The notes under the pieces are model-generated. The model was not told the DNA's origin. It was given only the letters and a program-made list of their open reading frames with translations, and did no database searches. DNA of 32,000 bases, from NCBI GenBank assembly GCA_030668875.1, contig DAOVER010000026.1, positions 9,222 to 41,221 on the forward strand, given 5' to 3'. A program made the position numbers and the translations under genes. This DNA comes from Candidatus Heimdallarchaeota archaeon (GTDB lineage Archaea > Asgardarchaeota > Heimdallarchaeia > Heimdallarchaeales > Heimdallarchaeaceae). Below are positions 1 to 17,166 of this stretch, one piece after another. Numbering within the stretch: the first letter of the stretch is position 1; each line of letters begins with the position of its first letter.

Positions 1-123
1 ATGTCTAATCATTTTTGCCGGTAAAATTTAACTTTAAATAGTTATAACAGTAATATGATTTATACTTGTGAGAACAGTCTCAATATTATTATATGTTAAT
101 AAGACATATGACAAGAAGACTAA

Positions 124-128
124 GAGGT
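124..128 (+). promoter_or_regulatory. Shine-Dalgarno-like motif for top6B
   Basis: GAGGT lies 7 nt upstream of the TTG start at 136. Confidence 0.55.
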
Positions 129-135
129 AAACACA

Positions 136-3100
136 TTGTCTGATGATAAAAGAGCAAAGAAAATGTCAGCAGCTGCATTCTTTAATGATAATAAAGCAAT
201 AGCTGGCTTTGGAAATTCAATGCGGGCAGTATTTACGAGTATCAGAGAACTTGTAGAAAATGGTTTGGATGCTGCAGAAATCAGGGGAGTCAACCCTGTT
301 ATTTCAATTTATTTACGCAAACTTTCTAGTAGAGAAATTAATGATTTGCTAGATGTAACCCAATATAAAAAGTTGGAAAAACATCTTGATTTTCTGCAAT
401 TAACCTGTAGAGATAATGGGGTTGGAGTTCCAAGCAATCAAATAGCGGATTTGTTTGGACGAGTATTAACAGGAACTAAATATGGTGTAATTCAGACTCG
501 TGGTCGATTTGGCCTCGGAGCAAAAATGTGTTTACTTCACTCTATGTCTTCAGTTGATTTACCAGCACGTATCAAGAGTCGTTACTTCATGGATGATATG
601 ACTCATGAACTTCATCTAATGATAGATCTTGAAAGAAATCAACCTATCGTCATGGAACAAAGAGAATATTTATCTGGAGACCCAAATGCGTTAGAAGAAC
701 CAGGTGTTGAGATTAGCATAACCTTTACTGGCGCTTGGAGATTAGCAAAGAATAGTGTTAAGGAGTACTTCAGACAATTAGCCATTATTACTCCTTATGC
801 AAGTTTTGACATAAAAGTTCCTGGAGATAAGGAAGGAGAATTTGAGGAATTACATTATGTGAATGTAGTAGATGATATGCCTCCTCCCCCCCAGCATATT
901 AAAATTCATCCTTGGGGATGTGATATCACTCAATTCAAAGCAGAATTGTCTTCCACTAAAACTAAAAAAATGAAGGCATTTCTTGCTGAACATTTTATGG
1001 GAGTAACGAATGAAATTGCTGAAGATTTCTTCCAGTTACTAGAAATAGACCCAAACAAATCACCTTCGAATATAACTTCGAAGGAAATACGAAGAATAGT
1101 ACATGAAGGTTTTATTAAAGCTTATCAAGAAGCTAAGGATGTTAAGAGGAAACGAGACAGAATATTCCAATTTGATCCACCACGAGGAGATGCCCTTTCT
1201 CCATTAGGTGCAGGGAGACTAAGGAAAGGTCTAGAGAAAGAATTGCAACCAAAATTTGTTGAAGCTGTTACAAGACCTCCTAAAGCTTACTCTGGTCATC
1301 CTTTTGCAATTGAAGCAACTATGGGTTATGGTGGGAGTGTAAATGAAGCTGCTCAAGCTAAAGGAGCTACCGTTAATGATAATAAGATAATTTACAGGTA
1401 TGCTAACAGAATACCACTGATTTTTGGAGCAGGAAATGATGTAATTACTCAAGTTGTTTCCTCTATCCGATGGAACGACTATGGTCTAACTAGACAGTCT
1501 GATCCTCTTGCAATTGCAGTTTCATTAGTTAGTACAAAAATACCTTTCCCTGAAACAAGTAAAGAGTATATTTCTAATGTTCCTGAAATTGAAGAAGAAA
1601 TAAGATTAGCTCTGATGCAACTAGGAAGGAGACTCAAAACCTTTTTGAGCAGAGCAAAACGAAGAAAAAGAGAACATGCAAGGTTATCCAGATTTGTTAA
1701 ATCAGCACCAGTTATAATTGAAAACCTTACCCAAATTCTTGAAGATGAGAACCTTAAATTCACCGATTTCCGACTAGAAACAGATCGAATTTCTGCATCT
1801 CTAGCTCATGGTTCTCCAAAGAAAGTTCGCTTGTATATGCCAATTGGAACGCGATTATTCGGAGCAAATGTTTGGTGTCCAAATAATATTCAAACAGCAT
1901 TAAAAAATAATAATATTGAGTCAGTTTCAGAATTTCTACTTAAAGATTCAAAAGAATTAGCTGCGTTCCTTCAAATGACAAAAGCTCAGATTTACGATAT
2001 AAAGTTAAGAACTATCTCTGAATTAGACAGAGACAACTTGAGTCCAAGTTTTGATACAAAGACCTTAGTGTCTCGTCTTGTTGAACGAAGGTTCTCCTCT
2101 GAAGGTGAAAGACGGTACATTTCCTTGAAAGATGCATTATACAGACGATGGATACAAAATGTTTACCACTATTTAGCAACAGATTTTGATAAACTTCGTG
2201 CTGTTTCAGGAATGCTAGAGAAGTTCTTCGAAACTAAGAAAGATGAATTACTTAATGATTACTTAGCTAAAGGAGCTAAGACAGGTAAAAACACTATATC
2301 AACTATAGACAAAGCTATTGCTACTTTCAATACTGTATCAGACTTAAAGAAAGAACAACTCTATCCTCCCTTTAAGTATTTAAAATCTGAGACTGACAAT
2401 GTTCTTGGAGAAGATTTGTCAATAGAAGAATTTCTTTACCAGACTGTACAACCCACATCTATTAACTATCATCCAGAAATAACTCGAACGCTTATTGAGT
2501 ATTTGAAAATTGTATTTACACAAATCACTAATAAATTCCCTGCATTTGCTGCAAGCAATATAACAAGAATGAAACCTGATTGGACAGATGGTTATACAAA
2601 AAATGCCTTCCATAGAAGAAAGATAAAAACAGTTAATGATTTTCTGAACCACTCTACAGATGATCTTATTGATATAAAAGAACTGGAAAGAATATTGTAT
2701 GAACAATACATAGAACTAATTGCTTCAAATTCAAAATCTGTTCCTTTGAAAGATTTCTCTTTTGTTGAAATTCAACAGTTAAAAGAGGATGAAACTCTTG
2801 TTATGAAAGATTTAGCTAAACACGGAATAAAGACTCTTGCTCAGTTCTTAAGCTGTACCTCTGAAAAAATATTACTAAAGAAGTTTAATACTTTAGGTAC
2901 TCTTTTACTGAAGGAATCAAAGTTCAAATTATCTGCAAATTTACATGATACTAACAGGATTGTTGATCAATCTCACATCAAAATTATTCCTGAAAATGTT
3001 GAAACAGAATTTGTAAGAAATCAAATATTTACAACTTCTTCTTTTTTGGCGAAATCTTCTGTAATATTAAAGAAAATGGGAATGAAGAAGAAAGATATTG

Positions 3101-6100
3101 AGAGAGCAAAGAAGGAACTTGGTACTCCTTTACAGAATTGGGTCGATCATGATGAAATTCTCAAGAAATGTGGTATAGTAATCTTAGAAGAATTATTCTT
3201 TAATGATTCATCCGAATATAATCTTACACCTGAAGAAAAGAAAAAGTATGATGAAAACATCATTTTCCTCCGTTCTCCACTGATTTTTGCTCTACCCGAA
3301 TTAAGAAGTTCCTCCCATCTTCTTACTGAAATTGGTATTAACAATATTGGACGTTTCCTAATATGGTCTAATTCTGAACTCTCAGATATCCTTTATCTAT
3401 CTGTCAATGAGATAAAAGCTCTGAAGAAGAAAATTGTTTATCAAAAACAAATTCAATCTAGGGATGAACTAGGGAAAGGCTTAACACTTCTTTCAAGGCA
3501 CTATCCTAATTTGGTGAAATATTTTGATAAAGAAGCACCATCGATTCAGGATTTATATTATGCTTATCAGTCAGAAAATTTCTCGTTTAATACAGGTTTT
3601 TGGAAAAAACTATACAAACTGAGTGAACTATCTCAACAAGAAGCTATTGATTTAGTTCATCTTTATCCTAAGAACTTCAAAGATATTGATACATTAAAAG
3701 AAGCACTCCTACGTTTGAAATCAAGGAATGTTGAAACTATACGTCAATTCATGGAATTGCAACCAGAGATAATTGAATCAAAATTGAGTGTCTCAAAGGA
3801 AAGGAAAGTTGCTAGAGCTCTCTATGATACGATCCGATCAAGAAGATTTGAAGGAGAACAAGAATTACACAAACAAATACTTCTTCTTAGTGAGTATGAT
3901 GAATTTCAAAGAAATTTTGGTTCTCCTATTTCTAGGATTCCTGAACTTGCTCTGGAAGAATTAGAGAAATTTCGAAGTCACGATATATTAGCTGTTCATC
4001 AGATATTCGATCATACAGTAGACGAAATAGCTACTGTGCTTGGTCGTGAAAAAGGATCAGTACAACAATTCATGAGCAGTTTTACCCTCTTACAGAAAGG
4101 AACACCATTCTTTGAAAAAGTAGATAGAAACAAATACAAATCACTAGTTTCATTTGAATTTGAGGATCTTGAACGTTTCTCTTCAATCGAGATTCAATCC
4201 CTTATTCAAGCTGGTTACGCTTCAGTTGACCAGATTTTTTATCTAACCCATCCACTTACTTTTTCCTCTTCCATTCTGAACTGGAATGTTGTAGACAAAT
4301 TTAGAAAATTATTACGATCACCTCTTACATTGGTTACATGGGAGAAAACAGTTAAGACAAAAACTTTTGATGAGACTGAGAATAAAGAAGTTGAAGTTGA
4401 GGACGTTCAAATTTCTACATTAACTACTTTACAATTAAATATTTTACAGAATCAAGGTATTTCAAGAATCATCGACCTTCTTGTAAGCAAACCAGAAACA
4501 CTTGCAGAAGCTCTTAGCATCAGTATGGAAGAAGCCAAGATACTCCAGAAAGATATCAGAATTAGTGACACTGGAACTGATTTAGCAGAATTGGACATCT
4601 TCAAATCAGAAATTGTTGATAAATTAGAGGAAAACAATGTTCTTACTCTTGAGGATTTATACTTCTCAACTTCGAAGAGCAAATGGAGAGTTAAAGAAGT
4701 TCCATGGGATATCATAGAATCATTCAAAAGTATTCTCAACCTTCCTCTTGCACATCTGTCAGATATGTTGGATGAAGATATTCTAACTGCTTTAGAGGAT
4801 GCTAATGTTAAAACTCTGTTAGGATTTATGCTTACAACTCCTGAAAGTTTAATGAATAAAACAGGTATACCTGATGAAAGATTTGAAACAATAAAACGCG
4901 GTATGGATATTTCTGACATATTCAGTTACTTCTCACTTCCAAGTTATTTCCTCCCAGGTTTAACCTTCCAGCAAACCGAGATTCTAAAAGAAAATGGTCT
5001 TAAATCAGTCGCAGAATTTATAATCAGCTCTCCACAGAAAATTAACAAATTAATCAAAGTGCCTGCTAAGCAATTCCGAGAAATCACTGCAGATTTAACC
5101 ACTCAAAGCCTACAAGCTCTGTATGATGAGAAAGGAATCTTTGCTTTTGAGACAAAGCTCTTCGATAAAATGGAACAACGACTATTGGGAAGGGATTCAA
5201 TATTTGAATTTGATAGGTTTCAAACCATCCAAGAAATGTATTATACACTGAATAGAGATTTCTATCAAAATAATCAAGACCTATGGGAAAAGGTCTCTGC
5301 AATCCAAAAAGTATTATCACTTCCTCTGCACATATTCACCGAAATCTCTGAATATGCTCTTGAAATTATGAGCCAAAATGGTATTAATTATGTTTATCAG
5401 CTACTCTTTATTCATGATTCAGATATAACTGATCCATTACTATTCAGAACTGTATCAACTTATTCTTCCAAAATAATCGAAATGAGAGCTTTTCATTACT
5501 TTTCCAAGCTTCCTGCTTTTGTTTATAATTCAAACTATTTCAAGAGAATATTGAAGGATACTGTTAACAAATCTCTCTCAGACGTTATTACTGATGAAAA
5601 GGTAATCAAAGATTTAGCTGCAAAAGATAAACAATATTTATACGAAAACTATAACTTAACTATCATTCGTTCAATTCTAGAACTACCACTTAGAATTACT
5701 CCTTACTTTACAAGAATAAAGAAAGTTAGAAGGGATGAATATAAAAATACGAAAATTGGTGATGTTTTCGATATTGATTTAGAAGAACATTCTGCTCTCT
5801 CCTCCTTTTACTCTAGATTATATGAAGAAAACTCTTTCAATAAATTAATCTCGCAATTAACTATCCCAATATCTTCAATGGGATTACCCCGTGAACTTGC
5901 CTTAAAACTAAGCAAATCATCCATAGGTACATTAATAGATTTTTATTCCACTCCTGAGAAACAAGTTTCTGAAATCACTGGTTTTTCACAGAAGAACATT
6001 CGAGAAATAAAAGATGGATTAACATATTCAAACATTGTTTCTTTCCGAGTATCACAAGCTCATAAAATAAAACCTTCTTCCTTTGTATCAGAAAAGCAGA

Positions 6101-9100
6101 TTTTCGACCTTATGGGGAAATCGATATCGGATATAGAATCTCTCTTTTACTCCGCAGAACATTTAGGAATCTCAAAATTACTCCCTCTTGAAAATTATAA
6201 GAAAATCAAGGAAATTCTATCTGGGTCTATAAGATTTGTAGGATTTCTCTCATTTGATGAAATAAGAAGGTTAGAGTATCATAATATTAATTCGATAATT
6301 GATTTTGCTCTACTCTCTAAAAAAGATCTCTTTACCATTACACAAAACCCCATTTACAAGGAGTTTCATGTTCTAGATTTGATTTCCTTTGATGAGTTAT
6401 CAGAGAAAAGGATTCAAGCTGCTATACCTCTCTCATTGTGCCCCTCGATAGAAGAAGATTACTTAGAGAAAATAAAAGAAATTGGAATAAACTCCATTCA
6501 AGATTTTATCTCAAGAATGACAGAAATTAGAGAATCTCATCCTCATCTAGTAAAATTAGATATCTTCCGAGAAGTACAAATGTATCTCTCTTCTGTAGCT
6601 TATATTGGACTTAATAATGAAAGTGTCCAGAAACTCATTTACTCAGGTGTTGGCGATATCTTATCTTTCATAACTGAAGACCCTTCAACTATATCTCTGA
6701 TTCTTGGAATAAGTGAAAAACAAGTTGATAAATATGTCAAACTTGCAGTTCCAAGTAATTTGGTTGAGAAAGTAGACAACAAAGGTGTTCTTCTTACAGA
6801 ATTTTCTGGATTATCTAGAGGAAGGAGAAATTCCTTACTAAAATCTGGAAAAGAAACAGTTCAAGATCTATTTAGTTCTCGTTATCAAGCTTATTCTCAA
6901 TCTAACATCTCTGATGCGTTGATGAGCGAATTTATTGAAAGCTGTAATATGTCGTTATACAGAATTGAAGAAATTGAACCAGGAATTAAGGCTAAGCTTT
7001 CAAAGAGTGGAATAACAAGAATTATTGATTTATTCTGCAGTACTGATGCAGGACTAAAGAAAGCTCTTGATGGTAAACTCCCCAAAGAGTTTAAGCAAAT
7101 TAGAAAAGGTCATTTCACCTTAACAAAAGGAATTCCGCTAAGTTTGAATGAACCCCTGCAAGATATTATTAGAGAACTTAATATCGAACCTTCCAACAAA
7201 AAGATTGAGGACATGTTTGGTTTTGTACCTGAATTTTTGCTTCAATTTACAGAATCTGAAAGAATTGAGAAGGATAAGAATTTAGCATTCCTAGAACAGA
7301 TAGTAAGTTTCTTGAGTCTTAATATTCTATCATTACCGTCATTTGATACCACCACTAAACTGATTCTTTGGAATCGTGGTATCCGCCATATAATAGAACT
7401 ATTATCCACGAATATGAACAAAATTGATGGTATCCCATATCAAGTAATCTCAGAGGTTCGATCTTACCAGAAAAATTTTAGTTTAAGTAGAAGCATGTCA
7501 GAGACATTTTCTCCATATATTGATGATGTACTCAATTTACCTGTTAAAAAGCAAATTAGATTCCAGAATTATGGTCTCACTAGTGCTTTATTACTAGTTG
7601 ATTTCATACCTCATCCCATATTCAGTTTCACTGCAAATGAGCAATCTATTCTCCGGATTATTTCAAATAACATGTTCAAACCAATAACCTGGTTATCTTC
7701 AGATGTATCATTTAAGATTGAAGACATAAACTTACTAATTCAAAATAGAGCTATAAACATCCTTTCAGCTCTGCTTCTATTATCTGATCAAGATGATACT
7801 AAAGCACTAGATACTTTATCTAATAAATACTATAAACCGATTTCTGCTTACCTCAATTCATCTGTCTTACAACTTAGTGCCCCTGAATGGGCTCTACAAT
7901 TATCTAATACAAAGATAATAACAGATGCTAATAGCCTAAAATTACTAAAGAAAGAGAACATTTCTTATCTTGATGAATTCCTGACATTAGAAAGCAAGTT
8001 TTTGAATAACCCTAATCTTATAACCGATGTTTTACCAAAACTACTTTCACTAAAAAGCCTCCCCATATCCTCCATCAGTGACCTATCACCCAGTAATATT
8101 CAAAAATTAAAACGTTCAAGAATAAACAATGTTTATGAGTTTCTTGTAGTTCCTGCTCCATTGCTTTCAAATCTTCTATCAATTTCTGTTGAGAATGTTA
8201 ACGCAACTAAATCTTCAATTGATCTTTCTTCATTAGAAAAAACAGCAAAACTTACTGGTTTGGACCTAGAACTCTTCCCAGAACTTTCCCAAGATTCTAG
8301 AATAATTCTTCAAAGAAGAGGTTGTGTGTCTCTGAATCAAGCATCGAAGATGGATCTAGATCTCATTCCACTTCTTTCAGAAGATAAGTTACTTTTACAA
8401 AACCTTATCGCTATGTTATTTACTCCCACCACATTAATTGGAAAAATACTTAAATTAACAAAGAATGAAATTGATGAATTACTAATTCGTGATGTATGTA
8501 CATATGTAGACCTCTTAGAGCTTCCTCAAAAAACTTGGCCTGCAAAAATAAGGAAAAGTTTGTCAGATAAGGATTCTGATCCAACATATCTAATTAAGAA
8601 CTTACAAAACCTTGAGAAATTCGGAGTGCCTATAGAAAAGCTAGATTTAGCAAAAAGTGTTACTAAAGCGCTAGTAGATGCAGGAATTGTAACAATTGAT
8701 CATCTATACTATCTACCCATAACCTATGTAAGTGCAAGGAGTAAAGTTAAACAACCCATTCTTGAAGAAATTAAGAAGAAATTATCCTACAATATAAATT
8801 TCCTTCAAGATATCTCACATACAACTTTAGCTGGTTGTTATTCGAAAGATTCTTTTACGATAATTAGTTGCTTGATTTACTGGAATAATTTATCTAAGGA
8901 AATAAGAACAGATTTGGAAGGTTCTCTAGACAGTATCAAACTAATTGAAGAAACAAGATTTATTGAACCACTGACTCCAACGGAAACAAAGCTAGAATCT
9001 ATTGGTATTCACTCGTTAAGATCATTCATTTTATCCCCACAGATTAAAAAAGAAACAGGTTTAGCAACCAAACTATTACCATCTCTATTAGCTAATATTC

Positions 9101-12100
9101 GTTTCCTAAGTCTAGATCCAAAGCAGATTTCTCGCTTGAAGAAAACTGGTTTTGTTACAGTGGCAGATTTGCTTCTAAATACTTCAAAAACAATATCTGT
9201 TAAATCCAAATTAGGTAAGAATGCAATTGATGAAATTCTCAATAACATAAAAATTGATAACTTAACCAGTTTGATTAAATCGATGGAACAAGAGCATTTA
9301 CATGATGCATTTTATCTGAGTACTAATGACAAAACATTCTTGAAATCAATAGGTGTTTATAGTTTAGCAGACTTAAACGAGTATACTGTTCTTGACTGGT
9401 TTGTTTCTAAACAAAAAATCCAAAAAATCAAAAAGAAAATTAACGCTTTGTTAGATACTAATATCCTTTACTATCCAGGAATTACATCTAAACAATATGC
9501 AGAAGTTGTTGAACAATACTTCATGAGGAATATATTTACGATCAAAGATCTAATGATATCAACAACAGTCGAGAAGACAAGTGATTTGATTGAATTTCTA
9601 ACCATTTTCTCTACTAACAAACCTAAAATCCAATCCCAATATGTGACCTCTCTTTCATTCTTAAAAGGCATTGAAACCAAGGATTTGTTCGAGAAAAATG
9701 TTAAATTAGAAAAATCTGCAACAATTAATGATCTTATAGTAGCATTATACAGAAATTCTGAGGAATTGACCAAAAAGGGCGATGATATTATCAAACAGAT
9801 TAACTACCCAATTTCTTTTTCATCAAAACTTAACCTCAATGAAGCAAATGATTTACGAAGCAAAAACATCCTTTCATATGGAGATGTACTTACCAAACCA
9901 GTAGGTTATTGGGGGACTTTTGCTTCAGCGAAACTAAAGAAGAAGATTCTTGAAATTCTTAGTACAATTACATCACAAAACATTGAAAATGAAGGTAAGA
10001 AGAGAGTTCAATTAAGTAGCATGAAAATATTCGATACAAACCTTAAGAAACAGCTTACATCAAATTATAAGACAATTGATGAAGTTATTCATGCAATAAA
10101 AACAGAAGATACTAAAATCTTAAAACCATTGGAAAGGAAAATCACTAAAGTTTTGTCTACTCCTATCTCTCTTCTCAAATTACCAAAAATCAAGATTAAA
10201 TCATGGAAAAGACTTATATCGACTGTATCTACTTTAGAAGAATTCTACTTATTAACAGATCAAGAATTAGTCAAAATTCTATCCTCAAGCAAGGAAGAAA
10301 TTGTTAAATTAAAGATCAATCTCGGGTCTGAAAATATCATCTTACCTCCAAGAATAAAGGAAAATAAGATCTTTACTAGTTCAGATGTTACAGAACTAAG
10401 TGCTAATGGGATTTCAAATTATGTACAGCTTTTTGAAGTGACAATAGAAATTTCTAAACTCAGCACTTCGTTAAAGGATAAAATTGCCTTCTACAAGGAG
10501 TTTGATGTTAAGCAATTGGACGAGAACATAGAAGAAACCATACTCCTGAAAGATTTTGTATTTCTTGACTTTTATGCAGATTCTCTGGCTCTAAGTAGAA
10601 TACAAAAGGAATCTGTAAAGAATCTTTCCTCCTTGCTCTTGTCTCGTGGAACTCATCTATCAAAGATATTTGATATAGATCTATTTGATATAGATCCCAA
10701 TAAAGACAAAAGTAATCTGCTCAATACAACTATAGAGTATTTCCTCTTGATCGAGAAATATCGACCTAAGGTTTACACAAAAATTGTTGAATCTTTACAA
10801 GAAAAATACTCTTCACAATTAAACACTTTGCTTTCTTATCTTAATAGGTCACCAATTCTCCTTTCAGGACCAAATCTGTCAAATATTAACAAAATAGTTA
10901 AACTTCCTTATGAAAATATAAAGGACTTGCTCTTACTATCCAAGGAGAAACTTATTCGAGAAATAAATGATGTTGCTGTTCAAAGAAATGTTAGAGGATT
11001 GACATTATCTGTTTTGAAAGATCTTGATTCCAAGCTGACTTATATTCCAAAAGAGTTTTTGACAGCTTACGAGATAAACCAATTAAAGAAAGAGAATATT
11101 TATTCCTTTGAAGAAGCTTTGGTTTTCAATAGAAAGTCAACTAGTAGAAAATCTAAGCCTTGGTTACTATCTGAAAAAGTAAGAAAAATATCCACTATTA
11201 ACACGCTCTCACTTTCTTCTTATCTCCCCTCATCTAAAATACAAGAAAGACTACTGAAACTTAAAATAACCAATGTGTATGAACTGGTTTATTATTGCCA
11301 GAATACAGAAAAAGAAGAAGACTTGAGTCTTTGCCAATCTGTTATTCAATCTGTAAGTTCTATTAATATTGAGGAAATTGAAACAAAAGAGAGAAGTAGA
11401 TTTACTAAATTCTTTAATGACCCCGATATTCTTTCTTATTTACGAAGTCAAGATATCAGAACTTTTGGACCTTTAGTACATTATTTAGAACAGTTAGAGG
11501 ATGAAGCTTTTACCCCTGAAATTGAGAAAATCTTATCCGTTATGCGTTTTCCAGTTTCTGTATTGTCAGATAATAAGAAACTTGTGCTAAAACTAGAAGG
11601 TGAAGGTTATAACCAAGTAGTTAATCTTCTTATTCCTGCAAAAATAATCAATAGTTTGAAAAGCAATATTACCGAGAATCAGAAGAAAGTTCTCACCTCT
11701 CTGATTAACATGCTTACTTATCAAGAAATATGTCGAATAATCACAAAAGATCATTATCCGATATCAAAACTTAGTTTAATCGATGATATTTTGTTAAAAG
11801 AGTTAGTAAAGGCTGGATATGCATCAGTAGCTCATCTCAAATCAGCTGAAACAATTATTGCTGATACTAGCAAACTAAATCTACAACAAATTTCTCGTAT
11901 TGTAAGACTCTTTGATTCGTCTATTTATTACATGTCTGAAATGCTTAAAGACTATCCACAAAGTGCTTTTACTTTGTACAATAAAGGAGTTAACACACTA
12001 TGGGATATTTTCCTAGTTGGAAGTAAGGAAATTTCCAAGATTACAGGTATTTCTGTTCGACAGATAACTTCCTATTTATCAACTCTCAATCCTCAAGCAA

Positions 12101-12765
12101 TAAAACTTGCTCAAAAAGACCAAATTGCACTAAAAGAAAAGCTTACCTACTTAACTGTTGAAGATGTTGAACGATTAGAACAAAGTAACATCACTTCCAT
12201 ACAACAGTTATTGTTCCTTACAAAGGAAAATAAGACCACCTCTTCGCTCCAGCGAAGTAATGTGAAGAAATTCATCCAGCTACTTGGAATGCCTTTAAAT
12301 GCAATAGATATACAAGAGACAATTATTAAACAGCTAGAACAACAAGGTATCACTTTAGTAAAAGATTTCATTATTTATCCAGCAGAACCTATGGCTGGCA
12401 AAGTAGATTTAAGCTATGTTATGATTAAAAGGATTAAGGGAAGACTCCCCTTAGCTACAAAAAAGAAGGCTAAGAAATCTTCTCAAAAAACTTCTTCAGC
12501 AAAACCTACAACCACAAAGAAAACTACAATTGCCAAGAAATCAGTAACAACTCAACGAAAAGCTAAGACAACAACCGCCTCTTCTAAACCAAAACCAAAA
12601 GCTAAGGTTAAGCCAAAAGCTAAAGCTAAACCAAAACCAAAACCAAAATCAACTAAACAGATGACTTTGATGGATATGAAATCTACTTCAAAAAAGAAAT
12701 CATCTCCAACTTCAAAAACGAGAAAAAGCTCAAAAACCACTACGAAAAAAGGTGAAAAATCATGA
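136..12765 (+). CDS. top6B: Giant DNA topoisomerase VI subunit B fused to a ~50-module HhH-like array and a basic C-terminal tail (4209 aa)
   Basis: The first ~540 aa carry the Top6B GHKL motifs ELVENGLDA, DNGVG and GTKYGVIQTRGRFGLG, an H2TH segment (FLAEHFMGVTNEIAEDFF) and the transducer motifs RYANRIPL and IPFPETSKEYI (switch Lys). The ORF overlaps top6A by ATGA. The rest is repeated LxxPIxx(L)...L...G(I/V)x(T/S)(I/V)xx(L/F) modules. Confidence 0.95.
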   Translation: MSDDKRAKKMSAAAFFNDNKAIAGFGNSMRAVFTSIRELVENGLDAAEIRGVNPVISIYLRKLSSREINDLLDVTQYKKLEKHLDFLQLTCRDNGVGVPSNQIADLFGRVLTGTKYGVIQTRGRFGLGAKMCLLHSMSSVDLPARIKSRYFMDDMTHELHLMIDLERNQPIVMEQREYLSGDPNALEEPGVEISITFTGAWRLAKNSVKEYFRQLAIITPYASFDIKVPGDKEGEFEELHYVNVVDDMPPPPQHIKIHPWGCDITQFKAELSSTKTKKMKAFLAEHFMGVTNEIAEDFFQLLEIDPNKSPSNITSKEIRRIVHEGFIKAYQEAKDVKRKRDRIFQFDPPRGDALSPLGAGRLRKGLEKELQPKFVEAVTRPPKAYSGHPFAIEATMGYGGSVNEAAQAKGATVNDNKIIYRYANRIPLIFGAGNDVITQVVSSIRWNDYGLTRQSDPLAIAVSLVSTKIPFPETSKEYISNVPEIEEEIRLALMQLGRRLKTFLSRAKRRKREHARLSRFVKSAPVIIENLTQILEDENLKFTDFRLETDRISASLAHGSPKKVRLYMPIGTRLFGANVWCPNNIQTALKNNNIESVSEFLLKDSKELAAFLQMTKAQIYDIKLRTISELDRDNLSPSFDTKTLVSRLVERRFSSEGERRYISLKDALYRRWIQNVYHYLATDFDKLRAVSGMLEKFFETKKDELLNDYLAKGAKTGKNTISTIDKAIATFNTVSDLKKEQLYPPFKYLKSETDNVLGEDLSIEEFLYQTVQPTSINYHPEITRTLIEYLKIVFTQITNKFPAFAASNITRMKPDWTDGYTKNAFHRRKIKTVNDFLNHSTDDLIDIKELERILYEQYIELIASNSKSVPLKDFSFVEIQQLKEDETLVMKDLAKHGIKTLAQFLSCTSEKILLKKFNTLGTLLLKESKFKLSANLHDTNRIVDQSHIKIIPENVETEFVRNQIFTTSSFLAKSSVILKKMGMKKKDIERAKKELGTPLQNWVDHDEILKKCGIVILEELFFNDSSEYNLTPEEKKKYDENIIFLRSPLIFALPELRSSSHLLTEIGINNIGRFLIWSNSELSDILYLSVNEIKALKKKIVYQKQIQSRDELGKGLTLLSRHYPNLVKYFDKEAPSIQDLYYAYQSENFSFNTGFWKKLYKLSELSQQEAIDLVHLYPKNFKDIDTLKEALLRLKSRNVETIRQFMELQPEIIESKLSVSKERKVARALYDTIRSRRFEGEQELHKQILLLSEYDEFQRNFGSPISRIPELALEELEKFRSHDILAVHQIFDHTVDEIATVLGREKGSVQQFMSSFTLLQKGTPFFEKVDRNKYKSLVSFEFEDLERFSSIEIQSLIQAGYASVDQIFYLTHPLTFSSSILNWNVVDKFRKLLRSPLTLVTWEKTVKTKTFDETENKEVEVEDVQISTLTTLQLNILQNQGISRIIDLLVSKPETLAEALSISMEEAKILQKDIRISDTGTDLAELDIFKSEIVDKLEENNVLTLEDLYFSTSKSKWRVKEVPWDIIESFKSILNLPLAHLSDMLDEDILTALEDANVKTLLGFMLTTPESLMNKTGIPDERFETIKRGMDISDIFSYFSLPSYFLPGLTFQQTEILKENGLKSVAEFIISSPQKINKLIKVPAKQFREITADLTTQSLQALYDEKGIFAFETKLFDKMEQRLLGRDSIFEFDRFQTIQEMYYTLNRDFYQNNQDLWEKVSAIQKVLSLPLHIFTEISEYALEIMSQNGINYVYQLLFIHDSDITDPLLFRTVSTYSSKIIEMRAFHYFSKLPAFVYNSNYFKRILKDTVNKSLSDVITDEKVIKDLAAKDKQYLYENYNLTIIRSILELPLRITPYFTRIKKVRRDEYKNTKIGDVFDIDLEEHSALSSFYSRLYEENSFNKLISQLTIPISSMGLPRELALKLSKSSIGTLIDFYSTPEKQVSEITGFSQKNIREIKDGLTYSNIVSFRVSQAHKIKPSSFVSEKQIFDLMGKSISDIESLFYSAEHLGISKLLPLENYKKIKEILSGSIRFVGFLSFDEIRRLEYHNINSIIDFALLSKKDLFTITQNPIYKEFHVLDLISFDELSEKRIQAAIPLSLCPSIEEDYLEKIKEIGINSIQDFISRMTEIRESHPHLVKLDIFREVQMYLSSVAYIGLNNESVQKLIYSGVGDILSFITEDPSTISLILGISEKQVDKYVKLAVPSNLVEKVDNKGVLLTEFSGLSRGRRNSLLKSGKETVQDLFSSRYQAYSQSNISDALMSEFIESCNMSLYRIEEIEPGIKAKLSKSGITRIIDLFCSTDAGLKKALDGKLPKEFKQIRKGHFTLTKGIPLSLNEPLQDIIRELNIEPSNKKIEDMFGFVPEFLLQFTESERIEKDKNLAFLEQIVSFLSLNILSLPSFDTTTKLILWNRGIRHIIELLSTNMNKIDGIPYQVISEVRSYQKNFSLSRSMSETFSPYIDDVLNLPVKKQIRFQNYGLTSALLLVDFIPHPIFSFTANEQSILRIISNNMFKPITWLSSDVSFKIEDINLLIQNRAINILSALLLLSDQDDTKALDTLSNKYYKPISAYLNSSVLQLSAPEWALQLSNTKIITDANSLKLLKKENISYLDEFLTLESKFLNNPNLITDVLPKLLSLKSLPISSISDLSPSNIQKLKRSRINNVYEFLVVPAPLLSNLLSISVENVNATKSSIDLSSLEKTAKLTGLDLELFPELSQDSRIILQRRGCVSLNQASKMDLDLIPLLSEDKLLLQNLIAMLFTPTTLIGKILKLTKNEIDELLIRDVCTYVDLLELPQKTWPAKIRKSLSDKDSDPTYLIKNLQNLEKFGVPIEKLDLAKSVTKALVDAGIVTIDHLYYLPITYVSARSKVKQPILEEIKKKLSYNINFLQDISHTTLAGCYSKDSFTIISCLIYWNNLSKEIRTDLEGSLDSIKLIEETRFIEPLTPTETKLESIGIHSLRSFILSPQIKKETGLATKLLPSLLANIRFLSLDPKQISRLKKTGFVTVADLLLNTSKTISVKSKLGKNAIDEILNNIKIDNLTSLIKSMEQEHLHDAFYLSTNDKTFLKSIGVYSLADLNEYTVLDWFVSKQKIQKIKKKINALLDTNILYYPGITSKQYAEVVEQYFMRNIFTIKDLMISTTVEKTSDLIEFLTIFSTNKPKIQSQYVTSLSFLKGIETKDLFEKNVKLEKSATINDLIVALYRNSEELTKKGDDIIKQINYPISFSSKLNLNEANDLRSKNILSYGDVLTKPVGYWGTFASAKLKKKILEILSTITSQNIENEGKKRVQLSSMKIFDTNLKKQLTSNYKTIDEVIHAIKTEDTKILKPLERKITKVLSTPISLLKLPKIKIKSWKRLISTVSTLEEFYLLTDQELVKILSSSKEEIVKLKINLGSENIILPPRIKENKIFTSSDVTELSANGISNYVQLFEVTIEISKLSTSLKDKIAFYKEFDVKQLDENIEETILLKDFVFLDFYADSLALSRIQKESVKNLSSLLLSRGTHLSKIFDIDLFDIDPNKDKSNLLNTTIEYFLLIEKYRPKVYTKIVESLQEKYSSQLNTLLSYLNRSPILLSGPNLSNINKIVKLPYENIKDLLLLSKEKLIREINDVAVQRNVRGLTLSVLKDLDSKLTYIPKEFLTAYEINQLKKENIYSFEEALVFNRKSTSRKSKPWLLSEKVRKISTINTLSLSSYLPSSKIQERLLKLKITNVYELVYYCQNTEKEEDLSLCQSVIQSVSSINIEEIETKERSRFTKFFNDPDILSYLRSQDIRTFGPLVHYLEQLEDEAFTPEIEKILSVMRFPVSVLSDNKKLVLKLEGEGYNQVVNLLIPAKIINSLKSNITENQKKVLTSLINMLTYQEICRIITKDHYPISKLSLIDDILLKELVKAGYASVAHLKSAETIIADTSKLNLQQISRIVRLFDSSIYYMSEMLKDYPQSAFTLYNKGVNTLWDIFLVGSKEISKITGISVRQITSYLSTLNPQAIKLAQKDQIALKEKLTYLTVEDVERLEQSNITSIQQLLFLTKENKTTSSLQRSNVKKFIQLLGMPLNAIDIQETIIKQLEQQGITLVKDFIIYPAEPMAGKVDLSYVMIKRIKGRLPLATKKKAKKSSQKTSSAKPTTTKKTTIAKKSVTTQRKAKTTTASSKPKPKAKVKPKAKAKPKPKPKSTKQMTLMDMKSTSKKKSSPTSKTRKSSKTTTKKGEKS
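1860..12450 (+). repeat. Protein-level array of ~50 diverged HhH / alphaCTD-like modules within Top6B
   Basis: Examples: LTIPISSMGLPRELALKLSKSSIGTLIDFYSTPEKQVSEITGFSQKNIREIKDGL (5857-6021), KSLPISSISDLSPSNIQKLKRSRINNVYEFLVVPAPLLSNLLSISVENV (from 8053), FGVPIEKLDLAKSVTKALVDAGIVTIDHLYY and LGMPLNAIDIQETIIKQLEQQGITLVKDFII. The count is by eye and approximate. Confidence 0.85.
12460..12762 (+). repeat. Low-complexity Lys/Ser/Thr/Ala/Pro-rich tail with KP/KA dipeptide repeats
   Basis: KKKAKKSSQKTSSAKPTTTKK...KPKPKAKVKPKAKAKPKPKPK...KKGEKS; the DNA has AAACCA repeats at about 12586-12648. Confidence 0.9.
12751..12755 (+). promoter_or_regulatory. Shine-Dalgarno motif for top6A, inside the end of top6B
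   Basis: GGTGA lies 6 nt upstream of the ATG at 12762. Confidence 0.7.
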
Positions 12766-14171
12766 GTTCAGATCATAAATTTGTTATTAGTAATTCAACA
12801 GTTTTACCTGCTATTGAGAGAACTGCTTCTTTTGATAAGGATATTCTAGTTAGAGAAATATACAGTTGGGCTAGAGAAACATTTGACCTCAAACGAGGAT
12901 CATATGTATTATTCTTAAGAAGCTTCAAGAAATGGCACAAACTTGAACCTACAAGAAAATTATCTAGATACAATCTCCAAAAGGAAACAATGAGCATTAG
13001 CATAAAAAACTCAGTTTCAATAGACAAACTACAATCCGTTAGAGAAGAACTAGAACATTTAACAAAATACTTAATGCCTTTTGGTGTTACTCACGTAGCA
13101 ACCAAGAATTCACAAGAAACAAACAATCTTCTTGTTGAATATGCTTTAGATTTCCTAAATCAAGCAATGGTGTCACCTAATGATGCAGCTTTTCAGATTC
13201 CATCTAGAGCGGGAACAAATGTAGGTTTTGATGAGGATCAAGAATTAGTTCTTATCGGTCGTCAAATGATTGATAGACAATTTAGAAATTTAGCTTCAGT
13301 AAGTTCTGTTGAGCAAATGACCATTGTTATGAAACTCATTCACGATATTCTTTCCAGAGATATTCACAGTACTAAAAGAGATATATTCTATATGAATGTA
13401 AATGCATTTGATAAGCAGTCTGTTTCTGATTCTCTTATAGAAGATGTGGGAGCAATGTTACAAGTTACTCGTTCATCTTTGAATATTAGTGCTTCTTCCA
13501 AAGGGATTGTTGTTGGACGTATTAGTTTCAAAGAAAAAGGGGATCTCATAGATTGTCGTGCAATAGGAGCTGGCAAAGCTATATCACCAAATATTGATGA
13601 TATAGAGAGTATGGAAACTGATGCAGAAATGTGTTTGGTTATTGAGAAGGATGCTGTCTTCAATAGGCTTGCAGAGGATCAGTTCTATGATTATGTCCCA
13701 AGCATCCTCATAACAGCAAAAGGTCAACCGGATATAGCTACAAGACAATTTTTGAAGAAAATAAACGATGATCTCAGTCTACCTATATTTGCTATTATGG
13801 ATGCCGACCCTTATGGTTTTGAAATTATGCGTGTATATAGCGTAGGGAGCAAAGCATTGAGCTTTGAATCAAGTCATCTAGCCGTACCTAGTATTAAATG
13901 GTTGGGTTTACTACCAAGTGATCTTTCTCCTGAAAGTGGATTTGATATTCCAAGAAGTGCTTTAATTAAAATGACTTCTAAAGACATTCATCGATCTAAA
14001 CTGATGCTAGATGAGGAATTTGTCAAAAGAAAACCAAAATGGAAAGAGCAACTAGAAATCCAAATAGCAACTGGGTTTAAAGCTGAAATACAAGCACTTA
14101 ATGCAAGAGACCCACAATATATTACTAATTTCTATCTTCCACAAAAAATTGAGGCGGGAGATTTTATCTAA
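12762..14171 (+). CDS. top6A: DNA topoisomerase VI subunit A (Spo11 family) with an N-terminal ubiquitin-like domain
   Basis: The catalytic Tyr motif is TKRDIFY (Y210, nt 13389-13391). Toprim motifs are VIEKDAVF and DADPYG, with ITAKGQPD and KAEIQAL also present. Residues ~5-82 resemble a beta-grasp Ubl domain. Confidence 0.97.
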   Translation: MSSDHKFVISNSTVLPAIERTASFDKDILVREIYSWARETFDLKRGSYVLFLRSFKKWHKLEPTRKLSRYNLQKETMSISIKNSVSIDKLQSVREELEHLTKYLMPFGVTHVATKNSQETNNLLVEYALDFLNQAMVSPNDAAFQIPSRAGTNVGFDEDQELVLIGRQMIDRQFRNLASVSSVEQMTIVMKLIHDILSRDIHSTKRDIFYMNVNAFDKQSVSDSLIEDVGAMLQVTRSSLNISASSKGIVVGRISFKEKGDLIDCRAIGAGKAISPNIDDIESMETDAEMCLVIEKDAVFNRLAEDQFYDYVPSILITAKGQPDIATRQFLKKINDDLSLPIFAIMDADPYGFEIMRVYSVGSKALSFESSHLAVPSIKWLGLLPSDLSPESGFDIPRSALIKMTSKDIHRSKLMLDEEFVKRKPKWKEQLEIQIATGFKAEIQALNARDPQYITNFYLPQKIEAGDFI

Positions 14172-14232: not shown

Positions 14233-14613
14233 TTACTTTAGCAGGACAATCTCAATTGTGGATACTGTTTTTGGACCATAACCTTCTACATCACTTGGCA
14301 ATTCTTCAGATCCTATAACCACTTTATCAATTACTACGCTGTCTATCGGGTATTTTCTACGAGCTATTTCAGCAACATCAACTGCTTTCGAGATTTGTCT
14401 TCCACGGGCTTGAATTCCACACTTATTATGTTTATTGAGTATTGTAATTGCAACTAAAACATAGCTAATCGTTGGTTTCTTTCCGATGTAAATAATATGA
14501 CTCCGCTCTCTGTACTCAGTTGTGGGTTTAGTGGCTTCTTTAGGCGTTTCTTCTTTCTTAGCTTCTTCCTTAGCTTCTTTCTTAGCTTCTTCCTTAGCTT
14601 CTTCTTTACTCAT
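14233..14613 (-). CDS. albA: Alba DNA/RNA-binding chromatin protein with an N-terminal EEAK repeat
   Basis: IYIGKKP...YV...ARGRQISKAVDVAEI...IGSEE...VSTIEIVL are Alba motifs. ATG at 14613 is preceded by AGGTGA and is preferred over the GTG at 14622. Confidence 0.95.
   Translation of the reverse strand: MSKEEAKEEAKKEAKEEAKKEETPKEATKPTTEYRERSHIIYIGKKPTISYVLVAITILNKHNKCGIQARGRQISKAVDVAEIARRKYPIDSVVIDKVVIGSEELPSDVEGYGPKTVSTIEIVLLK
14557..14604 (-). repeat. 4 x 12-bp tandem repeat encoding (E/K)EAK
   Basis: On the + strand: CTTAGCTTCTTC, CTTAGCTTCTTT, CTTAGCTTCTTC, CTTAGCTTCTTC. Confidence 0.9.
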
Positions 14614-14778
14614 GAATTTCACCTATATTCCATTGTCTGTCAAATGCTTCAGTATAAGCGTTATTAAAATGTCATTCCCACGTTTAAAAATTTTTCCTCC
14701 TCCTTAAGTGACACACAAAAGAACAAATAAATACATTAAGGTAAAACAAGAATAGGGCTTAATAAGGCCAAAGGATGT

Positions 14779-16575
14779 TTGATAGATTTGAAGTTTCCAA
14801 GGTTCATAATTGATTCTTTAATCATTGTGCTAAGTATATCTTTGCTTACTTCTATTTATACTATCTTTGGGTGGTTTTTTCCTCTCTTTGAAAATTACAT
14901 TATTATTCTTGATATCTTTGTTGGGATAGGTTTTATTATCTATGGATGGTTATTGAGACGATGGTTTCTTAAGAAGAATCTTGATGAGAAAGATGGTTCA
15001 TTGATACATTTTTTTAAGATAATTCTTCCAGTATTTGGTTTAATATTGGTCATTGTATTAGTAATTGGTTTATCTAATCTATCAAAGATAATTCTCCTAG
15101 CAATGATTTCTAACTATTTATTAAATATCTTTCAGATCTTTATTGTATCGATTCTAGTTGGGATTTTCACATTTACATTTATCGAGAATAATCTTGGAAT
15201 TCTTCTTTTCAAAGAACCTGTAGTTGAACAAGAAGACAAGCTCGGTTCTGATTTAATGAGAAAGCAGCTAAAGAATCTCGTTGACAAACAATGGAAATAT
15301 GGTATGATTATTCTATGGATATCTATTATGATAGCAAATCTACTAGTTTTTCTCGCATATCCTTCCATACCTGCAAATGAAGTGAGTTTTACCTATCAAA
15401 ATCTTGATTTTAGTTTTCCTAATTTTGCGTTCACATTCAACACAGAAACAGGTTTTAATCAACAATTCTTCTCTAGTGTTTCTATCCCTTCATCTGCACT
15501 TCTAAATTGGAAATTAATTCAATCTCTCATCAGTCTTATTTTTCTGGGTTTGCTTGTTCTACTCATATATCTGCCTTATTCAAAGATTTCAGTGGAAAAA
15601 AATAAGATTAATGTAAGTTCAGCACATACTGAAAATGTTCAAGAAATAGATGAGAAACTGGGTACTGTCCCAATTTCCTTAACCACTTCTGACATTATCG
15701 AACATTTCGATGATATGGACACTGAAATTCTAGCTTTTAAAGTTCTGTCTCCACAACCTACAAAAGAATACTTGCCTTCAAACATAATAAGCCCTAAATC
15801 AAGAGGAAGATTTTCAAAAACACTAAATAGAATGAAGAACAGTGATGTAATTCCAGTTATGAACCTGGCGAGCTTGAATCTATTTCTGGCTCTCTATATT
15901 GTTAGTTTATTTGACAGATTGGGAATAATAACAAGTATTGCAAATGATGTGTTTCAAGATTCATATGCTCTATTAACACATCTTTACTGGGCTGGGTTAG
16001 CAGAAGAAGTATCATATCGTTTTCTTTTGTTTGGTGTTCCTTTGTTTGTCATTTATGGAGTAGTTTTTCTATTCATTTTCATTATAAAGAAGACACTAGT
16101 CAAAGAGAAGAAAGAAGAAGATCTTTCAAGATTTGCAATGTGGGTTAAATCCAAAACACCAATAAACCCCCTACTCTATTTGAGTGGTAGATGGAAAAAA
16201 CTGAGAATTCTTGATGTCATATTTCTATTACTTTCGTCATTCGGTTTTGGTTATGTTCACTATCAATTTGGTTGGGATGCATGGAAAATATTTCAAGCAG
16301 GAATCGCTGGAATTATTTTTGGTTATGCTTTCTTTAAATACGGATTACATGCTGCGATAATTTTGCACACAATAAATAATTTTGTACTAGGAATGCTAGT
16401 ATCTCTAAATCTTGGTTTTATGTTATCTGGTGGCATTCTGTTTATTGTTATTACTGTTGCTGGAATATTGGTATTGCTGAATTTAACAGCAAAGGCACTA
16501 ACAGTATCTTTTAAATTCCTTAATACTATATTCAAAAGAAGTCAACCAAGTACTGATACCTCTAAACAAAAGTGA
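14779..16575 (+). CDS. Polytopic membrane protein with a C-terminal CPBP (type II CAAX protease/Abi) intramembrane metalloprotease domain
   Basis: AEEVSYR (EExxxR), FGYVH (FxxxH) and HTINN (HxxxN) motifs; many hydrophobic segments. Confidence 0.88.
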   Translation: MIDLKFPRFIIDSLIIVLSISLLTSIYTIFGWFFPLFENYIIILDIFVGIGFIIYGWLLRRWFLKKNLDEKDGSLIHFFKIILPVFGLILVIVLVIGLSNLSKIILLAMISNYLLNIFQIFIVSILVGIFTFTFIENNLGILLFKEPVVEQEDKLGSDLMRKQLKNLVDKQWKYGMIILWISIMIANLLVFLAYPSIPANEVSFTYQNLDFSFPNFAFTFNTETGFNQQFFSSVSIPSSALLNWKLIQSLISLIFLGLLVLLIYLPYSKISVEKNKINVSSAHTENVQEIDEKLGTVPISLTTSDIIEHFDDMDTEILAFKVLSPQPTKEYLPSNIISPKSRGRFSKTLNRMKNSDVIPVMNLASLNLFLALYIVSLFDRLGIITSIANDVFQDSYALLTHLYWAGLAEEVSYRFLLFGVPLFVIYGVVFLFIFIIKKTLVKEKKEEDLSRFAMWVKSKTPINPLLYLSGRWKKLRILDVIFLLLSSFGFGYVHYQFGWDAWKIFQAGIAGIIFGYAFFKYGLHAAIILHTINNFVLGMLVSLNLGFMLSGGILFIVITVAGILVLLNLTAKALTVSFKFLNTIFKRSQPSTDTSKQK

Positions 16576-17165
16576 AGAATATGAGCTACGGGCAAAAATT
16601 ATTCCTTAAGGTAATCTTAGCAGGAGAAGCTGAAGTAGGAAAAACAAGTTTAAGACGTTCATATCTTGGAGAAGGATTTGTCAAAAGTCATCTTCAAACG
16701 ATAGGTGCAGATTTTGCTTCATTACCAAAAACAGTCAAAGATTATAATGTTCTTTATCAGATTTGGGATGTAGCTGGACAAGACATATTCGAAAATGTTC
16801 GGATGATGTACTATAAGGGTACCCTTGGTGCGATGATGGTATTTGACGCTACAAAAATTAATACTTTTAGAGCATTGGATCGTTGGATAAAAGAGCTTGA
16901 GAAAGGTACAGAAAGAGGAATTGTTCCATTCTTCATCCTCGGCAATAAGATGGATTTAGTTACTCCTGCAAAAAAAACCAAACTAAAAGCAGAAGTCAAT
17001 AAATACATAGCTGGGTTGAACAAAAAATATTCTGACAAGGGATTTACTGTAGAGTATATTGAAACTTCTGCTAAAACCGGTGATAATGTCCATTCCGCTT
17101 TTGAACAATTAGGAGTCAAGATTATAGATTATATTCAACATCGAAAGAAAATGAGGGGTAAATAG
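16572..17165 (+). CDS. Rab-like small GTPase (Ras superfamily)
   Basis: G1 GEAEVGKTS, G2 TIGADF, G3 WDVAGQ, YYKG, G4 NKMD, G5 ETSAK. The start is GTG 16572 or ATG 16581. Confidence 0.95.
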   Translation: MKNMSYGQKLFLKVILAGEAEVGKTSLRRSYLGEGFVKSHLQTIGADFASLPKTVKDYNVLYQIWDVAGQDIFENVRMMYYKGTLGAMMVFDATKINTFRALDRWIKELEKGTERGIVPFFILGNKMDLVTPAKKTKLKAEVNKYIAGLNKKYSDKGFTVEYIETSAKTGDNVHSAFEQLGVKIIDYIQHRKKMRGK

Positions 17166-17166
17166 A

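Follow-up and report, generated by a model that had tools for sequence, protein, structure and literature searches.

The gene for the B subunit of DNA topoisomerase VI (Topo VI) in Candidatus Heimdallarchaeota archaeon almost certainly has a genuine and selected giant architecture: the intact, sole copy of Top6B, in its native operon, is fused to a giant arm of helix-hairpin-helix (HhH) domains and a basic tail. The gene lies on contig DAOVER010000026.1 of assembly GCA_030668875.1, in a stretch of 32,000 nucleotides (positions 9,222 to 41,221) referred to throughout as the window. Its frame runs on the + strand from a TTG start at position 136 to a TGA stop at 12763-12765 and specifies 4,209 aa without interruption, about eight times the size of a normal Top6B. 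The protein is laid out as a catalytic core (aa 1-545), a linker, a helical repeat array of ~3,540 aa and a basic tail.

Topo VI is the archaeal origin of the plant endoreduplication topoisomerase and of the meiotic Spo11 complex, and no archaeal lineage is placed nearer to eukaryotes than the Heimdall group. To our knowledge the arm, at ~60 HhH domains, would be the largest HhH array described, and the protein the largest type II topoisomerase subunit. A full-text search of the literature on Topo VI evolution found no description of an HhH array or of a Top6B of several thousand residues, in agreement with the original prediction, made from the sequence, that no Top6B of this architecture had been described; the relevant passages of that literature mention Asgard-specific helices, a C-terminal domain (CTD) and C-terminal 'globular' extensions. 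New here are the A/B anatomy of the super-repeats together with a confidently predicted fold, the selection figures, a tree on which lengths are nested, an imperfect link with gyrase, and a predicted docking on PCNA.

The catalytic core, its operon and the integrity of the frame

The core is readily recognised. Residues 5-543 match both NCBIfam equivalog models of Top6B, PRK04184 (448 bits; cut-off 274) and TIGR01052 (388 bits; cut-off 381), and the Pfam Topo-VIb_trans model matches within the core at E 2e-54. The GHKL-H2TH-transducer arrangement is shared with the canonical subunits of Sulfolobus shibatae (2zbk_B, 530 aa; E 8e-88, aligned over aa 6-542) and Methanosarcina mazei (2q2e_B, 621 aa; E 2e-59), as are the top6B-top6A operon and the ATP-binding boxes: ELVENGLDA, DNGVGVP and TRGRFGLGAK (N-box, G1 and G2) are in register with their S. 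shibatae counterparts, and so is the W..Y motif of the transducer. By these matches the core is the B subunit of Topo VI, a type IIB enzyme, and is predicted to be catalytically intact; the catalytic part is that of Top6B/Top6A, type IIB, and not the type IC catalytic domain of Topo V. What sets the window protein apart from canonical Top6B is the ~3,660 additional residues that follow the transducer and bring it to ~8 times their length. M. mazei Top6B ends in an immunoglobulin-like (Ig-like) CTD, whereas the Pfam scan found no domain of that type in the window protein, which has a 25-residue linker at this point and folded parts that are all-helical. The arm is joined at the transducer end, adjacent to the helices that bind Top6A. 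In the databases its giant orthologues are named plainly 'DNA topoisomerase VI subunit B'.

The signals at both ends of the gene are in order. The Shine-Dalgarno-like GAGGT lies 8 nt upstream of the TTG start, and the NCBI orthologue P0003 starts at the residue equivalent to that of the window protein. The end of top6B reads GGTGA-N6-ATGA, the GGTGA being 8 nt upstream of the next start, so that top6A (12762-14171, + strand; 469 aa; TP6A_N E 2e-21, Toprim E 8e-58) begins within the top6B stop. Wherever the contig of a fetched relative extends far enough, top6B is followed by a top6A open reading frame (ORF). The window's gene is the sole Top6B match of its genome, which is 92% complete. Computed masses are 481.8 kDa for Top6B and 53.2 kDa for Top6A, hence 1,070 kDa for an A2B2 enzyme. 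An intact core in native operon position with an ATGA overlap and a ribosome-binding site, some 3,650 residues beyond the core without a stop, and an assembly of roughly 1 MDa had all been anticipated in the original prediction, and all are borne out.

Top6A has peculiarities of its own. Its N-terminal ~110 residues (window 12762-13090) are not covered by the NCBIfam Top6A models, whose alignments begin at aa 110-143. Its length is 464-479 aa beside Top6B proteins of at least 2,290 aa (437 aa where the fetched stretch cuts it) and 409-422 aa beside those of 547-1,123 aa.

The window's contig is of metagenome origin, and one metagenome-assembled genome, G043, has the gene as two overlapping frames of 625 and 2,996 aa; both observations could be taken to mean that the giant frame is a misassembly, the product of a stop codon lost in one assembly only, or a decaying pseudogene. 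We consider this extremely improbable. An equal fusion is present in dozens of genomes and on two closed chromosomes: the single-contig genomes G015 and G016, of the same family, encode Top6B proteins of 4,185 and 4,305 aa followed by top6A. Searching with the extension by itself returned ten protein clusters of 4,161-4,210 aa, drawn from NCBI, JGI, ENA and Logan assemblies, with 47-91% identity over 100% of the extension; one carries the NCBI name 'DNA topoisomerase VI subunit B [Candidatus Heimdallarchaeaceae archaeon]'. Fourteen full-length orthologues (4,161-4,305 aa) are colinear in 4,380 alignment columns.

The DNA itself was recovered in contigs that Logan assembled run by run; the four runs concerned are of marine sediment and belong to one study, and three of them may be the source of the window DNA. 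These contigs, of 12.6 kb (6-12580) and 16 kb (1-12580), differ by three substitutions and show neither indel nor joint, which disposes, over that span, of the chimeric join that the original prediction had raised as a counter-explanation. Logan contigs end at 12581-12658, in low-complexity codons of the tail; a join at these ends was considered and rejected as an effect of repeat skipping. The gene is under selection: relative to the closest relative, the ratio of nonsynonymous to synonymous substitution rates (dN/dS) is 0.044 in the core, 0.11-0.12 in both halves of the array and 0.39 in the tail, and strain variants within the Logan runs fall mostly at third codon positions. Among the matches listed, no RNA run carries the sequence.

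The broken gene of G043 (L059:470-11310, G043:C4) owes its two frames to a shift of one base at an A-run, at ~aa 521 inside the transducer and not at a domain boundary. Conserved sequence continues in the other frame, and the break is thus an error or a recent lesion and not a two-gene ancestral state; relatives other than this sole split one carry the equal fusion, so the pair of separate genes that had been envisaged in the original prediction is not what they show. The downstream 2,996-aa frame is recorded as a separate protein, P0035.

Anatomy and affinities of the repeat array

Hairpin cores at aa 1925, 2046, 2167 and 2288 recur with a period of 121 aa. A super-repeat model of 111 positions, built on this period and iterated on orthologues, makes 31 tandem matches over aa 581-4139, 23 of them at an independent E-value of at most 1e-3 (18-83 bits), while the best scores in shuffled and reversed controls are 3-5 bits. 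Single modules of 35 or 71 aa served poorly as queries for hidden Markov model and hhalign searches, either shrinking or tiling unclearly; it was the 121-aa super-repeat that worked. From aa 1908 on, units are spaced at 112-131 aa, except for two split ones. Both halves of the consensus open alike, with P-[IL]..L and then L...G-I-x-T-[IV]-x-D-L, and a second hairpin follows only in the first half: each super-repeat comprises a five-helix (HhH)2 domain resembling the N-terminal domain (NTD) of RAD51/RadA and a shorter HhH domain. Hairpins that fit a relaxed pattern number 46 in the array, where shuffled sequence gives 8.8 on average and never more than 19; of the glycine-bearing form there are 11, with 0.2 expected. 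The number of modules depends on how they are defined, as ~30 super-repeats, ~46 hairpin cores or ~58-60 domains of ~60 aa; the ~50 HhH-like modules first estimated is a fair figure. Together they give the arm a mass of ~409 kDa. Comparison of the 31 units with each other reveals no block duplication and no constant offset, and each unit has its own orthologue in relatives; the array is therefore old and has not been homogenised.

Several lines of sequence comparison converge on the kind of domain involved. Pfam RAD51D_N matches three stretches of the array (E 6e-28, 97 bits; cut-off 27.3), RNA_pol_A_CTD narrowly passes its cut-off (24.1 bits against 23.8) and HHH_5, at 25.9 bits, falls just below its own. 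When the 31 units are scanned singly at E <= 0.1, eight match RAD51D_N, four the CTD of the RNA polymerase (RNAP) alpha subunit (alpha-CTD) and three HHH_5; the family precomputed on all orthologues is PF26169, HHH_XRCC3_RpoA. A profile of 123 repeats compared with the PDB finds the NTD of human RAD51 (1b22, 1.3e-5) and the RNAP alpha-CTD (8e-5), and also RAD51C, DMC1 and Pol IV; RadA is matched by the second half of the profile. The top PDB match of the profile, the 'CAP repeat' 8vd6, was set aside because it is a de novo designed repeat protein (PMC12339374). A phmmer search of the PDB with aa 1900-2400 gave no match. Against the genome's own RadA the repeat profile aligns with the right domain, weakly (E 0.016, probability 2.8%). 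That RadA is encoded in the window at 25699-26811 (- strand; Rad51 E 1.6e-92), with HHH_5 at aa 60-111 and a basic N-terminal extension of ~55 aa.

Structure prediction agrees. With the 123 repeat sequences as alignment, AlphaFold2 (AF2) folds aa 1908-2028 at a predicted local distance difference test score (pLDDT) of 87.8 into eight helices, a five-helix domain (helices 12-19, 26-31, 34-41, 45-54 and 57-67) and then a three-helix domain. Structural comparison of this unit with 48,161 chains (VIA-align) places residues 1-62 closest to the NTD of RAD51C (8gj9_B; Z 7.7, rmsd 2.9, 62 of 64 residues aligned), followed by RAD51 paralogues, AF1548 and alpha-CTD (Z 6.2-6.5) and by SAM domains (Z 4.4-5.5); residues 70-121 match the HhH parts of Brr2 Sec63, Pol beta and Zip2-Spo16 (Z 4.5-4.9). 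As these Z values lie below 8, the fold matches count only in so far as they agree with the sequence matches; Foldseek E-values are weak (0.025 and worse), as expected for a domain of 60 aa. The HhH/SAM-like folds that structure prediction had been proposed to look for are thus found, and by sequence match and modelled fold together the modules are relatives of the RAD51/RadA NTD and the RNAP alpha-CTD. The RAD51, RadA and RAD51-paralogue NTDs (RAD51D_N, HHH_5, PF26169) provide the best matches of both kinds and share the pattern L...G-I-x-T-I-x-D-L; there, however, the domain is present in single copy before a RecA-type ATPase, whereas here ~60 copies follow a GHKL topoisomerase core.

The likeness to Topo V of Methanopyrus kandleri that the original prediction drew holds in part. 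Topo V, a type IC enzyme, also consists of a topoisomerase module followed by a long HhH array, whose 12 (HhH)2 domains wrap DNA and act as a processivity factor (PMC9489208); the present enzyme is of type IIB and its array ~5 times longer. Topo V appears neither among the 64 PDB sequence matches at E <= 1 nor in the rows listed by the fold searches, which do not exclude a family that they do not list. The shared layout stands; the modules themselves are nearest to the RAD51/RadA NTD and alpha-CTD, and since neither search returned Topo V the resemblance appears to be one of layout only.

Distribution and growth of the extension

The core served as query against 399 genomes of the phylum, and the open frame that encloses each match was read. 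In the window's own family, represented by five genera, Top6B frames are 4,140-4,305 aa long; in other families of the order they are 3,473-3,587 aa, with one of at least 4,244 aa cut by the contig end. Another family of the class, f5, has forms of 2,312-2,346 aa, f7 has forms of 1,108-1,155 aa together with a second copy of ~500 aa, and f28, outside the class, has forms of 2,286-2,297 aa. All other groups have a Top6B of 500-680 aa. The suggestion that Asgard relatives be searched for Top6B proteins above 1,000 aa has thus yielded several lineages, from ~1,120 to 4,305 aa. The number of units recognised by the repeat model falls with length, from ~30 through ~25, 16-18 and 13 to 5-8 in successively shorter forms, with none in the 547- and 577-aa forms.

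In a maximum-likelihood tree of the core, all extended forms make up one clade (support 100/99), with the 547-aa form as sister under what is a midpoint root only, and lengths are nested in rising order: 547, ~1,120, ~2,300, ~3,500 and ~4,200 aa. Colinearity with the window Top6B extends over aa 5-2323 for the 2,312-aa protein and to ~aa 2,000-2,300 for the 3,500-aa forms. Identity across the array is 0.5-0.7 in the proximal half and 0.3-0.4 in the distal half. This colinearity of shorter forms with the proximal part implies that the proximal half is the older and better conserved, and that the distal half was added later. Read from the core tree, the extension has a single origin and grew stepwise. 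One form from outside the class, of 2,293 aa (L008, G306:C6), has a last stretch of ~560 residues (aa 1730-2293) unmatched by the repeat model, and a masked run (X) stands at the end of its frame.

An exhaustive profile search of 1.84 billion representatives returned 34 proteins at E <= 1e-30. Representatives with at least 13 repeat stretches either have the Top6B core or are coreless, and the two coreless ones examined are pieces of incomplete genes: P0013, rejected as an array-only protein, starts 92 nt from a contig end, and P0035, rejected likewise, is the downstream frame of the G043 frameshift. Weaker matches of the repeat profile are unrelated proteins with 3-7 alpha-CTD-like domains and Sigma70_r4. 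Six of these (P0073, P0074, P0082, P0083, P0087 and P0119) are 750-1,380 aa long, with their RNAP alpha-CTD-like domains in tandem, and one has HARE-HTH in addition. Tandem (HhH)2-type domains are common to such proteins (e.g. P0073, P0082) and the giant Top6B, but their arrays are short, lack a topoisomerase core and have another partner domain.

C-terminal extension of Top6B has been considered before. In the passages of Villain et al. 2022 (PMC9348778) that concern them, such extensions are said to occur only in gyrase-encoding archaea, Asgard included, and are proposed to have evolved there. The window's extension resembles them in following the transducer and in the presence of gyrase in host lineages (Heimdall, Kari, Hod); those passages describe CTDs of ~100 residues or 'globular' ones, and no HhH arrays of several thousand residues. 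It could then be that the arm is an adaptation to coexistence with DNA gyrase, one that specialises or sequesters Topo VI, for example as a dedicated decatenase, and keeps it from interfering with gyrase; such a role has been proposed for the lineage-specific C-terminal extensions of Top6B in gyrase-bearing archaea. Besides the restriction reported in that paper, a gyrA, probably intein-bearing, in the window's genome speaks for this, as do the presence of gyrA in all 29 genomes of f1 (the window's family), 1/1 of f2, 3/3 of f3, 11 of the 12 of f4, 21 of the 22 of f5 and 2/2 of f6, and its position directly upstream of top6B in f5 and f6. The correspondence breaks down elsewhere: f7 has gyrA in none of 12 genomes, yet a Top6B of 1,120 aa with repeats; f28 has it in one of five, yet a form of 2,290 aa; and the gyrase-bearing Loki-type families f19-f21 have a Top6B of normal length. 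The link between gyrase and extension is imperfect. It provides, moreover, an evolutionary context and no mechanism, and is compatible both with an arm that holds DNA and with one that serves as a scaffold; we regard gyrase adaptation as quite improbable as the explanation of the arm.

The genome's own gyrA lies outside the window, at G000:C15:55634-60685 (L018, L019), as a 1,726-aa frame whose family match comes in three pieces, which suggests inteins. In the 2,300-aa lineage (f5/f6) ~100 nt separate the end of gyrA from top6B, which lies downstream on the same strand, and gyrA, top6B and top6A follow one another in a row; this is seen at G065:C1:4657136-4661204 and also in G057, G069, G075 and G078.

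The tail, PCNA and the possible role of the arm

The last 104 residues of the protein have a composition of disordered type. A basic tail is found in f1, in f3 and in one of the f4 forms (G049); that of G053 (f4) is weaker, and f5 and f7 have none. Within eleven otherwise poorly conserved orthologous tails one motif stands out, [KR]-Q-x-T-L-x-D-[MIV], in which Q, T, L and D are invariant. Its form in the window protein, KQMTLMDM, resembles archaeal PCNA-interacting peptides (PIPs) of the KQxTLxDF type; as a sequence, the motif is PIP-like and not canonical.

A complex model was made of the genome's own PCNA (L024:1495-2277), with 23 relatives, and a 70-residue tail with its orthologues. It scores 0.80, as against 0.06 for the best of three controls, passing a mark at which 58 of 80 solved complexes also pass, as do 2 of 110 mismatched pairs. 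Agreement of contacts between runs is 57% or more, and partner pLDDT is at least 52. Tail residues 32-42, K-S-T-K-Q-M-T-L-M-D-M, are placed against PCNA residues 41, 44-48, 231-232 and 248-255, the canonical PIP pocket. The model supports binding as a prediction only, in which the motif sits in the PIP pocket of the cell's own PCNA.

The mechanism we favour, to which we give an even chance of being right, makes arm and tail a holder of DNA or chromatin for Topo VI, with the tail docked on PCNA. The A2B2 enzyme, at ~1.07 MDa, would have two arms, each of which together with its tail would take a multivalent, sequence-independent hold on duplex DNA or chromatin; the hairpins of the array would bind the DNA backbone without specificity for sequence. 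Such a hold, of the kind that its HhH array gives Topo V, would retain the strand-passage core on the chromosome and make capture of a second duplex more likely, and processive decatenation or relaxation would be favoured. In the window's family the [KR]Q.TL.D[MIV] motif would dock the far end of the arm on PCNA, and the enzyme, on this long leash, would act in the neighbourhood of clamps left at replication forks or behind them. The roles put forward in the original prediction, namely the wrapping or bridging of DNA, the selection of crossovers and a scaffold, are conjectural.

A number of observations weigh against this mechanism. The array is nearly neutral in charge (net +10 over 3,560 aa, pI 8.2; -115 to +35 in relatives) and keeps the canonical hairpin glycine in only ~11-12 modules, which weakens the simple picture of a DNA-binding arm. 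The folds of the RAD51 NTD and alpha-CTD double as protein-binding modules, and the unit-specific conservation fits specific surfaces as well as it does generic contact with DNA. AF2 prediction of aa 1420-2619 (1,200 aa, 14 orthologues) gave helices only, at a mean pLDDT of 53, with no usable geometry between modules. As to the tail, the PIP consensus Q-x-x-[LIM]-x-x-[FYW]-[FYW] is incompletely matched: Q and L are present, and in all eleven tails the aromatic pair is replaced by M/V/I and a variable residue. The motif was seen only in tails of the window's family, while the array is class-wide. PIP-PCNA complexes are, besides, abundant among solved structures, and the success of the complex model may therefore reflect likeness only.

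The main rival draws on several of the same observations. In it the arm would be mainly a scaffold or spacer for proteins, a set of docking surfaces or a semi-rigid rod with little DNA contact, which spaces Topo VI from a partner such as PCNA, chromatin proteins or a cell structure. The near-neutral or negative charge of the array speaks for it, as does a hairpin glycine in only ~11 of ~60 modules; a conserved orthologue for each unit, without concerted evolution or block duplication, the SAM domains returned by the fold search and a predicted PCNA-docking motif at the far end point the same way. On the other side, the best matches are HhH domains that bind nucleic acid (RAD51/RadA NTD, alpha-CTD, Y-family polymerases, Pol beta), the arm belongs to an enzyme that acts on DNA and is followed by a strongly basic tail, and no partner is known. 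We think the scaffold or spacer a possible though doubtful account of the arm.

The holding of DNA or chromatin by arm and tail can be taken further. The arm could be a DNA-coating leash, perhaps of 100 nm or more, with its far end on PCNA, turning the enzyme of Heimdallarchaeaceae into a type IIB decatenase tethered to the replisome, with two clamps for each A2B2, and stepwise growth of the arm would have adjusted how far the enzyme reaches on chromatin. This elaboration we think unlikely. Were arm and tail to hold DNA at all, the lineage would have found a new way of keeping a strand-passage enzyme on its chromosome. The natural series of arm lengths (547, 1,120, 2,300, 3,500 and 4,200 aa) is a system that can be tested against the core by itself, and it bears on processivity, preference for decatenation, tethering to clamps and the way work is shared with gyrase. 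HhH arrays have a practical side, too, being of interest as processivity modules that resist salt.

Table 1. Coordinates in the window of features of the giant top6B gene and of the adjoining top6A
Feature	Residues of Top6B	Position	Strand	Basis
Shine-Dalgarno-like GAGGT (124-128) and TTG start codon (136-138) of top6B		124..138	+	Read from sequence
Top6B catalytic core (GHKL ATPase, H2TH, transducer)	1-545	136..1770	+	NCBIfam, Pfam, 2zbk_B alignment
Linker, transducer to first repeat	546-570	1771..1845	+	2zbk_B alignment ends at aa 542; first repeat match at aa 581, model-anchored start 571
Array of ~30 tandem super-repeats of ~120 aa	571-4105	1846..12450	+	Self-built model, Pfam, orthologue colinearity
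Folded super-repeat (predicted)	1908-2028	5857..6219	+	AF2 with 123 repeat sequences
Basic low-complexity K/T/S/P tail	4106-4209	12451..12762	+	Composition: net charge +35, pI 11.4
PIP-box-like motif KQMTLMDM	4174-4181	12655..12678	+	Conserved in 11 orthologous tails
top6A and its signals: GGTGA (12751-12755), ATGA overlap (12762-12765), gene to 14171		12751..14171	+	Sequence, Pfam/NCBIfam

Other genes of the window were noted in passing. For three ORFs of 289, 548 and 357 aa in 21012-23524 and 19534-20607, Pfam gives nothing at E <= 0.001. The Topo VI operon is followed directly, on the opposite strand, by a gene for an Alba homologue (14233-14622, - strand; Pfam Alba E 4.5e-12 over aa 42-91) with a K/E-rich N-terminal extension of ~40 aa. 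A string of three genes occupies 14779-19521, the first two overlapping and the third beginning 2 nt past the end of the second: they encode a multi-pass membrane protein of 598 aa without a Pfam match, a small GTPase of the Ras family (E 1.5e-35), and a 784-aa HEAT-repeat protein with weak matches to condensin Cnd1 and stromalin.

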